Positions 7,471 to 52,459 of a stretch of DNA of 64,000 bases are shown here, piece after piece. The translations under genes were made by a program, and so were the position numbers. The notes beneath the pieces were generated by a model. The model made no database searches and was not told the origin of the DNA. It saw only the letters and a program-made list of their open reading frames with translations. Numbering within the stretch: position 1 is the stretch's first letter; the number at the start of each line of letters is the position of its first letter. The stretch is from Raja brachyura (Eukaryota), in contig OY740805.1 in NCBI GenBank assembly GCA_963514005.1, positions 36,704,001 to 36,768,000 on the forward strand, written 5' to 3'.

Positions 7471-8432
7471 ACTCGGATAGGCACAAAAATCTGGAGTGAC
7501 TCAACAGACAATAGACAATAGACAATGGGTGCAGGAGGCCATTCGGCCCTTCGAGCCAGCACCGCCATTCACTTTGATCATGCCTGATAATCCACAATCA
7601 GCACCCCGTTCCTGCCTTCTTCCCATATCCCTTGACTGCGCTATCTTTCCGAGCTCTATCTAACTCAGCTGGACAGGTAGCAACTCTGGAGATCAGGAAT
7701 TAGTGACGTTTCGGGTCCCGACCCTTCTTCACACCTATGTACCTCGGTACATGTGACACTACACTAAACTGAGTGCAGATCCAGATTATCCGTCCGGGCA
7801 ATGAACGAAATCCCGAATTCTGAATTTGAGTTTTCAATAAACATCTTGCTTTTCGACCTGCCACTTAGTGGATTCTTTGCACGCAAATAGATAAATGGAT
7901 TTGTCAACTGCGAGGCAGCTGACGTCCTCTTCTCAGGAAAAGCGGCCCAGCTTGTTCCTTCTGAAGCGATTTCACAATGCTGCACCCAAGACGTTATTTA
8001 AAAAAAACCCTTCGTGCTGGAGGAACTAAACGGGTCAGGCAGCATCTCTGGAGATGAAAACAACGAACCACAGGTGGTGGTTAATGCTCAAGTATGTCAA
8101 GTGCTGGAGTACCTCAACAGGTCAGACAGCGCCTATGTAGGTGGGATGAAGGAACTGCAGATGCTGGTTGATGCATAAAATAACATAAAGTGCTGAAGTA
8201 ACTCAGCAGGTCCGACAGCGCCTCTGACGCTGGGAACGATGAACAGCAAAGGCTGGTGGATGCATATAAGATCAAAAAGTGCTCCAGTAGATCAGTGATT
8301 CAGGAAGCATTTCTGGAGAACATGGATAGGCGACGGGTCTGGACCTCTCTTCAGACGGATTTCCCATGTCTTCTTCCGATGCTGCCTGACCTATTTTTGT
8401 GTGTTTCTTTCCGCCTAGGTAGCCGTTCAAAG

Positions 8433-8475
8433 ATGCAGTGGAGTGTGGTCGCTTGGTCATGTCTGCTGTTGTCTG
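8433..8475 (+). CDS. Gene A leader (signal peptide) exon, MQWSVVAWSCLLLS-G
   Basis: ATG at 8433, hydrophobic peptide, phase-1 donor G|gtaggt matching the phase-1 V exon; paralogous leader at 25831; upstream acceptor (cctag, 8418) suggests a non-coding first exon. Confidence 0.85.
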
Positions 8476-8696: not shown

Positions 8697-9029
8697 GTGC
8701 TGGTGGATCCGATGAATCGATCATACAATCACCGAAGCAGATCACAGTTACTGAAGGCGGGACTGTGCGGCTAAACTGTGCTGTTGTTGACAAGACAATC
8801 CGTTCAATTGGGGGCATTAGTTGGTACAAAGATGCGGGAACTCGTACCATTTCCAATGAGCGCGGCGACTATTATGGTCGCGTTTTGAAATATAGTTCAC
8901 CGGGAACCCTCAATGAATCAATCGAAATCACTGACATGAAAATGACCGAGACAGGAAGGTATTATTGCCGAGTGAGAGTTTTCTTCTTGCGAAGATATTG
9001 GGGCCACGGCACAGAAGTCACTGTCACAC
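8697..9029 (+). CDS. Gene A Ig V-set exon (NKp30/NCR3-like, joined VJ)
   Basis: tttcag| ... C|gtaagt, 333 nt, phase 1-1; canonical B-strand Cys, ISWYKD Trp, YYC and WGHGTEVTV J-like motif. Confidence 0.92.
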
Positions 9030-11953: not shown

Positions 11954-12271
11954 GATCTGTTGCACAAACACCTTCTAATGTCAACGTTACTGAAGGCGGG
12001 ACTGTGCGGATTAATTGTACATTTGTTGGCAAGACAATTAGGGCCTTCAGTTGTTACAAAGACGAGGAAACTCGTGCCGTTTCTAACACGGGCGGCGACT
12101 ATTAGTTCACTTGGAATTCTAAAAGAAATAGAAATAGTTCACTTGGAATTCTAAAATAATCCATCGAAATCACTGACCTCAAAATGAACGATACAGGAAA
12201 GTATTACTGCCCAGTGACTGTTTTCCCAGTGGAAATATATAATGGCCACGGCACAGAAGTCACAGTCACAC
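11954..12271 (+). pseudogene. Pseudo-V exon (psiV2) of the same family
   Basis: Acceptor tttcag mutated to tttcaa (11953); core Trp changed to Cys (SCYKD); TAG at 12103 from a 22-nt internal duplication; donor at 12272 intact. Confidence 0.88.
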
Positions 12272-13501
12272 GTAAGTTTGCGTTATCTTAACTTTATCCT
12301 AAAAAACATTCTTAACACCGACCACCACACGCCTCAACAACGAAGCATTGTCAGTTCAGATTCAGGCACAGAAATTAATTATATATGTAGGAACCAGGAG
12401 CCCCAGTTTAAGACTAAGGAGTAGGCCATTTAGGACTGAGGAGGAAAACCTTTTTCACCCAGCGAGTTGTGAATCTGTGGAATTATCTGCCTCAGAAGGC
12501 AGTGGAGGTCAATTTTCTGGATGCTTTCAAGAGAGAGTTAGTTGGTGCTCATAAAGATAGCGGAGTCAAGAGATATGGGGAGACGGCAGGAACGGGGTAC
12601 TGCTTGTGGATGATCAGCCATGATCACAGTGTATGGCGGTTCTGGCTCGAAGGGCCGAATGGCCTACTCCTGCACCTGTTGTCTATTGTCCATTGCCCAC
12701 ACCGGCCAACATGTCCCGTCGATACTAGTCCCACCTGCGTGCGGTTGGTCCATATCCATTGAAACCTGTCCAATCCATGTACCTGTCCAAGTGCTTCTTA
12801 CATGATGGGATAGTCCCAGCCTCAACGACCTTCTCTGGCTGCTTGCTCCATACAGCGACCATTTTCTCCATCGAAGAGCAATCCAGTTCCCTCTCAATTC
12901 ACATGCAAGCTACGCCCACTCCGACTCCTCTATATATCAGGGGCAATTTACAGCAGTTCATTACCTATCAGGACGCACGTCTTTGGGAGGAGAGATGAAG
13001 CAGTAACGCCCAGGGGAAACGCAGGCAATAACACGGAGAACGTGAAAACTCCACACCGGCAGTCAGCATTGAGGCCAGGCTGCTGGCCCACAGAGGCAGT
13101 AGATGCTTCGGCTATTTCCTTAAGCAATCAAGGTGGAGGTAAAAGGAACTGCAGATGCGAGATTACAAACAAAAAGACGCAAAGTGCTGGAGTAACTCCG
13201 CGGGCCACGCAGCATTTCTGGAGAACATGGATACGACATATTGTGGGATGCTGAAGAAGGGTGCCGACCTGAAACGTCGCCTATCCATGTTCTCCACAGA
13301 TGCTGCCTGACCCGTTGACTTATTCCAGCACTTTGTATTCTGTGTAAGATTTCCACATCTGTTGTTCCTTTTCATGCAAATGAACTGTACGAATTGGTCT
13401 ACGTTTAGAATGATAGTGGGAACATTTCGGTGTATAAGAATGGAAGGAAACAGAAATAAACTGGGAAAGTAATTTGTGAACTTGATGTTTTATTCCTACA
13501 G

Positions 13502-13653
13502 GCCCGAGCCTTGTAGAAAGCCCTGCATGGGGATTACGTTGGCAGCTGCTTGTAATGGGAGTGAAACTTGCAACGTTCATTGTGATCAACGTTATAATAG
13601 TCTTCATCATCCGCTCATGGGAGTCTTGGGGATTTGCCAGCCGGAGGAAATAA
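13502..13653 (+). CDS. Gene A stalk/TM/short tail exon with intramembrane Lys (activating type): RPSLVESPAWGLRWQLLVMGVKLATFIVINVIIVFIIRSWESWGFASRRK*
   Basis: Acceptor ttttattcctacag|, open in phase 1, about 24-residue hydrophobic span with Lys (13564-13566), stop at 13651-13653, donor gcg|gtaaga at 13674/13675; conserved paralog at 28605. Confidence 0.85.
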
Positions 13654-13787
13654 GCCTAACAAGCTGGTCAAGCGGTAAGAGGATTGCCAGCTACACGTGT
13701 GGATTGCATTAGCAGCTGAGGTCACTGGACAATGGTGCCTTTTATTGTCACCTGCAAGGTGCTACCATAGTGAAAATACTTTATTTC

Positions 13788-14845
13788 AAACTAAACTAAA
13801 TTAAACTAAACTAAACTAAACTACACTAAAATATAATAAAATAAAATACCCAAAATGAAACTAAGCGAAACTAAACTAAACTACACTTAACAAAAAAAGT
13901 TTAACTAAACTTAACTAAACTTAACCAAAGCAAACTAAACTAAATTAAACTAACATAAACTAACCTAAACTAAAATAAACTAAACAAAATTAAACGAAAC
14001 CAAACTAACTAAAGTATACTAAACTAAACTAAACCAAACTTCACGAAACCAATCCAAAGTAAAGAACACGAAACTAAACTAAACGAAATTAACCTAAACT
14101 AAACAAAAAAACATAACTAAACGTAACCAAACAAAATTACACTAATCTAAACGAAACTAAAATTAACTTACATTTAACAACTAAACTAATCTAAAATATA
14201 TTCAGTTCCATAGAAATCCCACACTACCTCCGCCACACTCTCATTTCATTCCTACCATCAAGAAGAATATATCTGAGTCTGAAAACCATGACCACAAGGT
14301 TCAAGAACAACTTCTTCCCTGCAACTATCAGGCCTTTGAACACCACATAAGACTAGGCTCAACTTTGAACATTTATGGACTTTCTTGCGTTGCACCGTGA
14401 ATCTTGTATTTTCGTGTTTGCACTAGATACAAATTTATTGTTGATTTTGTTTATTATTTTTTCTCAAAGTTTGATGTATGTACAGGCCTGTTACGCTGCT
14501 GCAAGTAAGAATTCCATTGTCCGGCTGTCGGTACAACAAACTTAGATAAAATATAATAACGAACCTAAACTAAGCTAAACTAAAATAAAATAAAATAAAA
14601 TAAAATACAGTAATCGAAACTAAACTAAACTAAACTAAACTAAAACAAACGTAACTAAATTTAACCAAACCAATCCAGAGCAAAGCAAACGAAACGAAAC
14701 TAAACTAAACTAAACTAAATTAACCTAAACTAAACAAAAAAAGCGTAACTAATCTTAACTAAGCGTAACCGAACCAAACCAAACAAAATTAAACAAATCT
14801 AAACGAAACTAAAGTAAACTTAAATTGACAACTAAACTAATTTAA
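13788..14845. repeat. Degenerate (AAACT)n satellite blocks within a roughly 0.6-kb tandem duplication (about 13990-14560 vs 14640-15215)
   Basis: Visible pentamer runs; duplicated flanks (gttccatagaaatcccacactacct ... cggtacaacaaac). Confidence 0.8.
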
Positions 14846-15630
14846 AATACATTGAGTTCCATAGAAATCCCACACTACCTTGGCCACGCTCTCATTTAAC
14901 TCCTACCATCAAGTTGAAGATATCTGAGTCTGAAAACCGTGACCACAACGTTCAAGAACAGCTTCTTCCCTGCAGCTATCAGGCCATTGGACACCACAGA
15001 CGACTAGGCTCAACTATGAGCATTGATGGAATTACTTGTGTTGCGTCAAGGATCTTGTATTTCCGTGTTTGCATTAGATACAAATTTGTTGTTGGTTTTG
15101 TTTATTATATTTTATCAAAGATTGTTGTGTGTACAGGCCTGTTACGCTGCTGCAAGTAAGACTTCCATTGTCCGGTTGGCGGTACAACAAACCTAAATAC
15201 AATATAGTAAATAAAACAAACAATACATTTGTAACTAGTGCAAACCCTCTTGACTCTTGCAACGTAGACTTGCTGCAACAAAACAAATGCGACATGCCAG
15301 GGAAAACTAGACCGATCCAGGCCAGGAATAAGGAACTCATACAGGACTTGGATGGAACATGGATAGGACATGTTTGGAGGGATATAGGCGAAACGTAGGC
15401 AGGAGGGTTTAGTGTAGCTGGGACATGTGGACCGGTGTGGGGAAAGTGGACATAAAGAACTTATATCCATGCTGTATCACTCCATGACTCTAATACTTGT
15501 AATTGTGTGGACACATATTTGACAAGAATTTTAATAATATTAATTGCAGTCAATTGTGTTCAATGCTATTTATGCTTTTTGTTTGTGCCTGTGCGTGTGG
15601 TATACTAATGTATCTATTTTATTTTCTCAG

Positions 15631-15690
15631 ACCATAAGCGTTGAACTCCCTACATATTTGAATAAACTCATCCAGCAGATGAAACCAAGA
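15631..15690 (+). other. Gene A terminal (3'UTR) exon with poly(A) signal; codes HHKR* if joined directly to V
   Basis: Strong acceptor tattttattttctcag|, AATAAA at 15661-15666; conserved at 31831. The 3' end is approximate. Confidence 0.65.
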
Positions 15691-15919
15691 AGAGCAAACC
15701 CATCACTGAATCAATATTAGCTTAGTCAGCTGTGCTGATACTGTTGCGGATCAATACCCATTTGGGATAATGTGATTTGTGAAATCTTACACTCATTAAA
15801 ACTCCACATTGTCTTCGTGTTTGTTCATTCCTGGCAACAACAGATTCTAGTCAGAGTGGTTACATTTCAAGCGTAGACCAATAGACAATCGACAATAGAC
15901 AATAGACACTATTTGTTAT

Positions 15920-27172: not shown

Positions 27173-27505
27173 GTGCTGTTGGAGCCAATGAATCGATCAT
27201 ACAATCACCGAAGAATATCACAGTTACTGAAGGCGGGACTGTGCGGATAAACTGTACATTTGTTGGCAAGACAATCAGTTCAATTGGGGCCATTAGTTGG
27301 TACAAAGACGTGGAAACTCGTGCCGTTTGCAACACGAGTGGCGACTATTATGGTCGCGTTCAGAAAAATAGTTCACCGGGAATTGTAAAAGAATCCATCA
27401 AAATCACTGACCTCAAAATGAACGAGACAGGAAAGTATTACTGCCGAGTGACTTTTTTCACGGGGGGAATATATAATGGCCACGGCACTGAAGTCACAGT
27501 CACAC
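27173..27505 (+). CDS. Gene B Ig V-set exon (NKp30/NCR3-like, joined VJ)
   Basis: tttcag| ... C|gtaagt, 333 nt, phase 1-1; INC, ISWYKD, YYCRV and GHGTEVTV motifs. Confidence 0.93.
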
Positions 27506-28604: not shown

Positions 28605-28765
28605 GCCGGAGCCTTGTAGAAAGCCCTGCGTGGAGATTACGTTGGCAGCTGCTGATAATGGGAGTGAAACTTGCAACGTTCATTGTGATCAACGTTGTAA
28701 TAGTCTTCATCATCCGCTCATGGGAGTCTTGTGGATTTGCCAGTCGGAGAAAACGAAGTCTATAA
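28605..28765 (+). CDS. Gene B stalk/TM/short tail exon with intramembrane Lys (activating type): RRSLVESPAWRLRWQLLIMGVKLATFIVINVVIVFIIRSWESCGFASRRKRSL*
   Basis: Acceptor ttttattccggcag|, open in phase 1, Lys codon 28667-28669, TAA 28763-28765, donor acg|gtaaga at 28778/28779. Confidence 0.87.
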
Positions 28766-28894
28766 GGCTGGTCAAACGGTAAGAGGATTGTCAGCTGCAT
28801 GTGTAGGTTGCATTAGCAGCTGAGGCCACTGGACAATGGTGCGTTTTATTGTCACTTGCGAGGTGCTACCACAGTGAAAATATTTCCCTTACAT

Positions 28895-42724: not shown

Positions 42725-43057
42725 GTGCTGTTGGGTCCGACGAATCGATCATACAATCACCAAAGAATATTACAGTTACTGAAGGCGGGACTGTGCGGAT
42801 AAACTGTGCATTTGTTGGCAAGACAAACAGTTCAATTGGGGCCATTAGTTGGTACAAAGATGTGGAAACTCGTTCCGTTTGCAACACGAGTGGCGACTAT
42901 TATGGTCGCGTTCAGAAATATAGTTCACAGGGAATTCTAAAAGAATCCATCGAAATCACTGACCTGCAAATTAACGAGACAGGAACGTATTACTGCCGAG
43001 TGACTGGTTTCACAGGGGGAATATATAATGGTCACGGCACAGAAGTCAGAGTCACAC
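42725..43057 (+). CDS. Gene C Ig V-set exon (NKp30/NCR3-like, joined VJ)
   Basis: tttcag| ... C|gtaagt, 333 nt, phase 1-1; 97 of 111 aa identical to the gene B V by manual alignment. Confidence 0.93.
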
Positions 43058-45011: not shown

Positions 45012-45143
45012 CGTCTGATCGGGGCGGCAAGGATTCAAATCGAAATTATATCTTTCCGCTTGTATTTGCACTCTTGGGCGTAGCGTTGCTTGGGATGGTA
45101 TTGATTCTCATCATTTACCTGCGACGCCTCGGTCGATCTCCAG
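45012..45143 (+). CDS. Gene C stalk/TM exon, uncharged TM: PSDRGGKDSNRNYIFPLVFALLGVALLGMVLILIIYLRRLGRSP
   Basis: Acceptor tttttatttctcaacag|, 132 nt phase 1-1, donor CAG|gtaata; hydrophobic span followed by an RR stop-transfer. Confidence 0.9.
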
Positions 45144-52084: not shown

Positions 52085-52459
52085 GAAAATGACACATCGA
52101 AAAATATAATCTATGCTGACCTGAATATGGACAAGTCGAACAGGAATCACCGTTCCGGTCATTGTGCCAGAGGGAATGGGGCACGGGTCAAAAACCCAGG
52201 CGGAGCCGGACCTCTGTCGGCGGCAGGCGGAAATGAAGACGCGGTCGTGTACTCCGCCTTGAGACACCCCGCTCCGATGGAGAATCGAGCTTCGGCGGCA
52301 GGTGGAAGGGAAGACCCGGTCGTCTACTCTGCCTTGAGACATCTGGCTCCGACGGACAATCCAGCATCGAGCAAGCAGAAGAAGAATACCAGAAGAAAGG
52401 ACCAACAGGTTGTGTACGCAACCGTGAATGCTCAACGTCCACCAGTTCTGCATCACTGA
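52085..52459 (+). CDS. Gene C last exon: cytoplasmic tail with four ITIMs (IIYADL, VVYSAL x2, VVYATV)
   Basis: gcattccag| phase 0, open to TGA 52457-52459; motifs at 52106-52123, 52244-52261, 52319-52336 and 52409-52426 fit (I/V)xYxx(L/V). Confidence 0.9.
   Translation, partial: ENDTSKNIIYADLNMDKSNRNHRSGHCARGNGARVKNPGGAGPLSAAGGNEDAVVYSALRHPAPMENRASAAGGREDPVVYSALRHLAPTDNPASSKQKKNTRRKDQQVVYATVNAQRPPVLHH

Follow-up and report, generated by a model that had tools for sequence, protein, structure and literature searches.

The window (the whole 64,000-nt stretch of Raja brachyura DNA that was analysed) holds three genes of a cluster of single-exon Ig V-domain receptors, which we mapped over 224 kb using the window and 16 tiles. 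Gene A is ordered leader, V, dead V and transmembrane exon with a Lys; gene B has leader, V and Lys transmembrane exon; and gene C has V, an uncharged transmembrane exon and a tail with four ITIM-like motifs. Beyond the window on the minus strand, gene E has leader, three V exons, an uncharged transmembrane exon and a tail with five ITIM-like motifs, and gene D has leader, two V exons and a Lys transmembrane exon, and so keeps a two-V form. The features are as follows.

8419..8475, plus strand: leader exon of gene A, with ATG at 8433 and phase-1 donor GTAGGT; the same leader is present in skate RefSeq model XP_078271940
8697..9029, plus strand: V exon of gene A, an intact single-exon VJ-type Ig V domain (Pfam V-set, E 6.9e-11) with AG/GT ends
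11954..12271, plus strand: dead second V exon of gene A, with acceptor AA in place of AG, core Trp lost, in-frame TAG and TAA, and donor intact
13502..13674, plus strand: stalk, transmembrane and short-tail exon of gene A, identified by splice sites, frame, copies and homologues
13564..13566, plus strand: intramembrane Lys codon, invariant in the alignment of membrane exons
13588..13590, plus strand: Asn codon at Lys+8
13651..13653, plus strand: stop codon TAA, 21 nt before the donor
15631..15830 (end approximate), plus strand: candidate final untranslated exon of gene A, with an acceptor and body shared by four copies in the cluster
27173..27505, plus strand: V exon of gene B, a paralogue with 70% amino-acid identity to gene A
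28605..28778, plus strand: Lys transmembrane exon of gene B, an intact copy of the gene A exon
42725..43057, plus strand: V exon of gene C
45012..45143, plus strand: uncharged transmembrane exon of gene C
52085..52459, plus strand: cytoplasmic exon of gene C with four ITIM-like Tyr motifs, predicted inhibitory
C25:36768019-36807581, minus strand: genes E and D, beyond the window

The membrane exon of gene A is bounded by an acceptor AG at 13500-13501 and a donor GTAAGA after 13674. Leader and V exon both end in phase 1, and the membrane exon joins them in phase, as a preliminary description of this DNA had proposed, giving a 175-aa frame made of leader 8433-8475, V exon 8697-9029 and membrane exon to the stop at 13651-13653. 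The same description correctly placed the Lys in the membrane with an Asn eight residues downstream (codons 13564 and 13588) and the stop 21 nt before the donor, and noted that the exon was absent from the ORF track, which is explained by its open frame of only 55 aa, shorter than the customary length threshold for ORFs. Sixteen stretches of the window match the Kyte-Doolittle level of the exon, so hydrophobicity alone was insufficient to reveal it, and Pfam has no family covering it. However, all three genome candidates scored were intact copies with 92-100% amino-acid identity, all inside 83 kb of contig C25, and identity was higher in the exon than in the flanking intron (94% vs 84-85% between genes A and B; 95% vs 89-92% between A and D). 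Since this conservation extends from the genome copies and the contrast with their flanks to homologous proteins, the membrane exon of gene A is a genuine exon, and a chance hydrophobic frame was ruled out.

Genes A, B and D stop at slightly different places ahead of the shared donor, as would be expected of an unconstrained short tail. A stop codon less than 50 nt before the last exon junction escapes mRNA decay. If the exon at 15631 is the last, the stop of gene A would escape under this rule; the earlier claim of escape was right in its 21-nt arithmetic, while its "last donor" is inferred from this conserved candidate exon. The conserved block at 15631, which contains poly(A)-like signals (AATAAA at 15661, ATTAAA at 15795), is likely to be the last exon of gene A. 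Between the two exons, the intron of gene A carries a tandem duplicate of a ~630-nt block that includes an (AAACT)n-like array (window 13780-15210); behind the membrane exons of genes B and D the block is single.

The preliminary exon set of gene A missed the dead second V exon that lies between V and transmembrane exons. This exon has a cryptic AG acceptor one base beyond the old site, and including it through either would end translation 117-166 nt ahead of the following junction. As it carries premature stops, gene A can encode a membrane protein only if the dead exon is skipped, and we infer that it is. The first V exon is unsplit (333 nt) and closes on a J-like end (GHGTEVTVT), the form of the non-rearranging VJ domain of the NCR3/NKp30 family, and its predicted model has a plain V-set fold (pLDDT 89.5). 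The domain has a distinct basic FG loop, and by a crude count over window 8699-9028 the V exons of genes A and B differ by amino-acid change in 33 codons and silently in 6. These replacement-rich differences hint at diversifying selection on a ligand face.

We identified relatives of gene A by several searches. A search with the V domain returned one homologue among six candidates, a stingray "NCR3-like" protein that runs into the same anchor. With this stingray protein as query, 6/85 candidates were homologous, five with a Lys anchor; the helix of the sixth bears no charge, and that protein has two ITIM-like motifs. A wider search (best 150 of 154 matches listed) added the Rhinoraja skate model XP_078271940, a catshark protein and nurse shark NCR3 (QTT61904.1), which we take to belong to the nurse shark NCR3 family of Kinlein et al. 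2021. The Rhinoraja model includes the membrane exon (73% identical over the exon), and QTT61904.1 carries the same WQ-x-L-x-x-G-x-K-L anchor. The exon had been called "unannotated", a label that does not hold for its relatives, in which these two records annotate it. Our literature search found no paper on this anchor or its adaptor, though Kinlein et al. 2021 may describe such subtypes, and the one supplementary file retrieved from PMC3964593, perhaps not its main supplement, gave no match for DAP12 or NKp30. Family and anchor are nevertheless already known, deposited from nurse shark and automatically annotated in rays and skate.

The batoid "NCR3-like" RefSeq proteins (Rhinoraja XP_078271940, Hemitrygon, Pristis, Mobula), whose names are automatic only, resemble gene A most closely. 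Their V domains form one clade with it (99/99), with two shark genes beside, and their membrane exons are 42-73% identical. They likewise include ITIM forms as well as Lys forms with one or two V domains; among rays and skates a Lys form with a single V is nothing unusual, and the two-V Lys protein is from Mobula. They differ in that the rays have a Glu at Lys-4, and in gene A the second V has been lost and the stop comes earlier. Nurse shark NCR3 shares with gene A the single-exon VJ domain, the Lys anchor motif and a very short tail, but has only 32% V identity, is not sister to the gene A clade and lacks the Asn at +8.

Among human proteins, profiles built without mammalian rows placed NKp30 closest. 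A structure search with a profile of 15 elasmobranch sequences returned human NKp30 (6yjp) as the best single-domain natural protein (64.2 bits, E 1.4e-16) among the best 60 of 323 matches; the four rows above it were engineered multi-domain antibodies, and SIRP was not among the 60 listed. A batoid-only profile scored mammalian NCR3 rows at 50-65 bits vs 35-47 for SIRP-type rows. A top rank of NKp30 obtained from an alignment that contained mammalian NCR3 was discounted as circular. Fold and phylogeny were less discriminating. In a fold search NKp30 (Z 13.5 over 104 aligned residues, rmsd 2.9) scored level with PILR and MPZ and fell below a skate VNAR (14.9), so that this search cannot separate the V-set families, and the ESM Atlas gave generic V-set clusters only. 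In trees of hand-chosen domains (122/274 in the large tree, 35 in the AU-test trees), in which deep nodes are unresolved, the gene A clade joined neither mammalian NCR3 nor QTT61904 with support, and AU tests over 116 columns rejected neither alternative, p-AU being 0.186 for a grouping with NCR3 and 0.599 for one with SIRP.

Kinship with SIRP is therefore compatible with the tree, but membership was rejected. The SIRP family is defined by a V-C1-C1 ectodomain; in the full-length homologues of gene A one or two V domains run directly into the membrane exon, and the cluster map contains V exons only, without C1. On sequence, gene A is placed in the elasmobranch NCR3/NKp30-like family, which is already known, as a further member with the basic membrane residue and short tail of NKp30 but Lys instead of Arg. 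The proposal that 13502-13674 is the membrane exon of an adaptor-type, NKp30-like activating receptor was upheld, and we consider it highly probable, in approximate terms, that genes with this kind of exon encode activators that work through an adaptor. A sturgeon SIRP-beta-like protein, whose V domains group with SIRP, also has a helix Lys with Asn at +8 as in gene A, a likeness that could reflect convergence or shared origin.

PMC12227049 and PMC10751288, in the portions consulted, present NCR3 as an MHC-linked VJ gene that does not rearrange. In our genome, 7/12 MHC class I matches lie on contig C25, at 18-24 Mb, with the receptor cluster at 36.7-36.8 Mb; a search for MHC class II beta gave no match in the genome. 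Like mammalian NKp30, which is its best single-domain sequence match among solved structures, gene A thus lies on an MHC chromosome and has an aromatic residue at +4, but its MHC linkage is at chromosome level only, the nearest class I exon match being 12.7 Mb off. Other-subtype NCR3-like V exons are found on C25 at 35816495-36217037 and 36671366-36671677, and five of these group with a Mobula five-V protein. At C25:36820400-36836514, on the minus strand, a V exon of divergent sequence is accompanied by the fourth copy of the 3' block; no membrane exon was found between the two, and this copy is probably truncated or secreted, judging by its exon content.

To our knowledge, mammalian NKp30 is a single gene without ITIM partners. 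Here, the three Lys-anchor genes and two ITIM-tail genes form what is, by predicted roles, a paired activating and inhibitory layout. The Lys anchor is confined to the short-tailed members and occurs in none of the ITIM members. In this the cluster is like SIRP-beta/SIRP-alpha and PILR, which also have a Lys anchor and short tail beside ITIM paralogues and a VJ-type V domain; it differs from them in lacking C1 domains among the homologues, in the lower SIRP profile scores and in the +4 aromatic, which the SIRP-type anchors lack. The first V exons of genes E and D are identical in protein, which suggests recent duplication or conversion.

We next compare the anchor with those of known receptors. 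The Lys of gene A aligns with the Arg of NKp30, and the residue at +4 is Phe in 11/11 elasmobranch Lys anchors, Tyr in 6/6 NKp30-type Arg anchors and aromatic in 0/2 SIRP-type anchors; rows of this motif table were picked by motif, which makes the count of Lys itself circular. All six ray proteins have a Glu at Lys-4, which suggests that the Lys lies in the outer third of the helix, the region in which partners of FcR-gamma have theirs or another basic residue (PMC1440944). Its helix position is 4, 6 or 8 for windows of 19, 21 and 23 residues, and near 9 if counted from the Trp ahead of the helix. The spacing between the charged residue and the basic one that follows it is 16 in gene A and in both skate adaptors, 14-16 for SIRP-type Lys and 20-27 for NKp30 Arg, and this spacing register does not decide the adaptor. 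The Asn at +8, which is present in 9/11 elasmobranch anchors examined, is missing in the nurse shark and catshark proteins. It stands as a feature of gene A and was rejected as a family-wide motif; it may aid helix packing and is not defining.

Candidate adaptors were sought in the genome, with the following results.

C24:19852044-19852130: FcR-gamma membrane exon, E 1.4e-11 to human FcR-gamma
C26:23715430-23778228: CD3 cluster, three membrane exons with acidic helices

Judged by subtype motifs, the three CD3 exons are probably one epsilon-like and two gamma/delta-like. Membrane exons of both FcR-gamma and CD3-zeta gave clear matches, while four limited and insensitive searches located no DAP12 or DAP10 exon in the genome. 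Two Pfam DAP10 matches were both spurious on reading, and two short DAP12 motif searches of the genome yielded 0/6 and 0/6 DAP12-like loci. One CD3 exon scores as well on human DAP12 (23.9 bits) as on CD3-delta; the single real exon from the DAP12 search has an upstream Ig exon and was assigned to a CD3 chain, and a search with the DAP12-scoring CD3 membrane exon returned the three CD3-cluster exons only. An ITAM profile search of the genome gave no match. The skate FcR-gamma exon contrasts with PMC4016189, which, in the part consulted, reports no FcR-gamma in shark genomes as of 2014.

Receptors with a short tail and a basic residue in the membrane assemble through that residue with the two aspartates of an ITAM dimer. 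In humans DAP12 favours a Lys at the centre of the helix, whereas FcR-gamma favours an Arg towards its outer end, and in mammals an Arg-to-Lys change cuts FcR-gamma assembly (PMC1440944, as excerpted). NKp30 uses CD3-zeta/FcR-gamma (PMC6514059, as excerpted). The mammalian Lys rule supports DAP12 and counts against FcR-gamma and zeta. Conversely, catfish IpLITR 2.6b, which has a Lys, binds FcR-gamma and zeta and not DAP12, and a Lys-to-Ala mutant still binds (PMC4810170, in the sections available). Because the Lys sits at the NKp30 Arg position with the +4 aromatic, and because of the ray Glu at -4, the catfish case and the adaptor exons found, we rank FcR-gamma/CD3-zeta slightly above DAP12. 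Our preferred reading, held with somewhat less than even confidence, is that gene A encodes a 175-aa NCR3/NKp30-family receptor, predicted to be activating, whose Lys pairs with an FcR-gamma or CD3-zeta dimer. In this mechanism the exon would provide stalk, membrane helix and a nine-to-twelve-residue tail; the dead second V exon would be skipped and the transcript would escape decay; and the Lys would pair in the membrane with the aspartate pair of the dimer, as the Arg of NKp30 does. The receptor would then assemble with its adaptor at the surface, and ligand binding would lead to ITAM-Syk/ZAP70 signalling, balanced against the neighbouring ITIM genes, whose V domains, ~70% identical, may see related ligands.

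The same activating receptor might instead pair its Lys with a DAP12 dimer, as do SIRP-beta, NKp44 and the activating KIRs, and we regard this as a real if rather doubtful possibility. It has in its favour the membrane Lys itself, the preferences of DAP12 for Lys and of FcR-gamma for Arg seen in residue swaps (PMC1440944, excerpted text), the position of the Lys near 9 from the Trp, a cytoplasmic basic spacing that matches SIRP-type anchors, and a cluster built like the SIRP/PILR paired receptors. The preliminary description had leaned to DAP12 from the Lys alone; the catfish counter-example (PMC4810170, same sections) and the failure of our searches, insensitive as they were, to locate a DAP12 or DAP10 exon speak against that step.

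An index search with the gene A V exon found no run on record as RNA, and is uninformative on expression. In contigs of two runs from two studies (X8 and X2, kind not on record), two-bin depth around the membrane exon was 83.9/11.6 and 11/1.84, vs 73.8/13.6 and 10.2/1.9 expected if cover were confined to 13502-13674, and an X8 contig matches the gene A V exon with 1 difference, its match ending at the donor (9029). Together these point weakly to splicing, while in X6 a contig continues across the membrane-exon donor. However, all listed contigs over 13629 and 13641 (X8, X2, X6) have the letters of paralogues B and D, so this evidence may not bear on gene A. In X8 and X2 cover is almost absent over the 5' half of the dead V exon, which we did not use as evidence.

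It is conceivable, though we think it unlikely, that the exon works in genes B and D while gene A is a decaying copy whose transcript includes the dead V or is barely made. The dead internal exon with its cryptic acceptor and intact donor would fit this, as would LINE fragments in the intron, the absence of gene A-specific 3' letters from the listed contigs, and the depth of the gene A-like V contig in X8 (9 vs 108 for the paralogue-like one, contig depth being a poor measure). Against it, gene A retains an intact leader, first V and membrane exon, all bounded by canonical splice sites; its helix codons match those of gene D at 100% and those of gene B at 96%; single-V Lys forms are usual among rays and skates; and the gene A-like V contig match ends at the donor. 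Least probable of all, and in our view very unlikely, is that the Lys is not the adaptor contact, snorkelling at the outer face or, in rays, being neutralised by the Glu, while the receptor couples through other helix residues or CD3 dimers, or acts as a non-signalling decoy for the ligand of the ITIM receptors. The Glu at -4 in 6/6 ray proteins, the catfish Lys-to-Ala result (PMC4810170, same sections) and the CD3 chains with acidic helices would allow it, but nurse shark and skate have both conserved the Lys, which in this cluster is found only in short-tailed members and never in ITIM members.

A broader conjecture, which we consider improbable, takes the cluster as an MHC-linked, SIRP-like paired system of NKp30-type VJ domains, in which the Lys activators would signal via FcR-gamma/CD3-zeta or CD3 because DAP12 would be missing. 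On this view the family would have survived as a connection among NKp30, SIRP and the membrane motif of antigen receptors, and gene A would show the system tuning its reach by killing a V exon.

Little is known of NK receptors in cartilaginous fish; the NKp30-like genes, which do not rearrange, are VJ relatives of antigen receptors. The exon itself is unsurprising, since the same anchor occurs in public shark and ray proteins; the testable point is the adaptor of a Lys-type NKp30 relative in cartilaginous fish. A cluster of three predicted activators and two predicted inhibitors, in a genome with FcR-gamma and CD3-zeta exons, would allow a test of whether the rule that Lys means DAP12 and Arg means FcR-gamma already held 450 million years ago.
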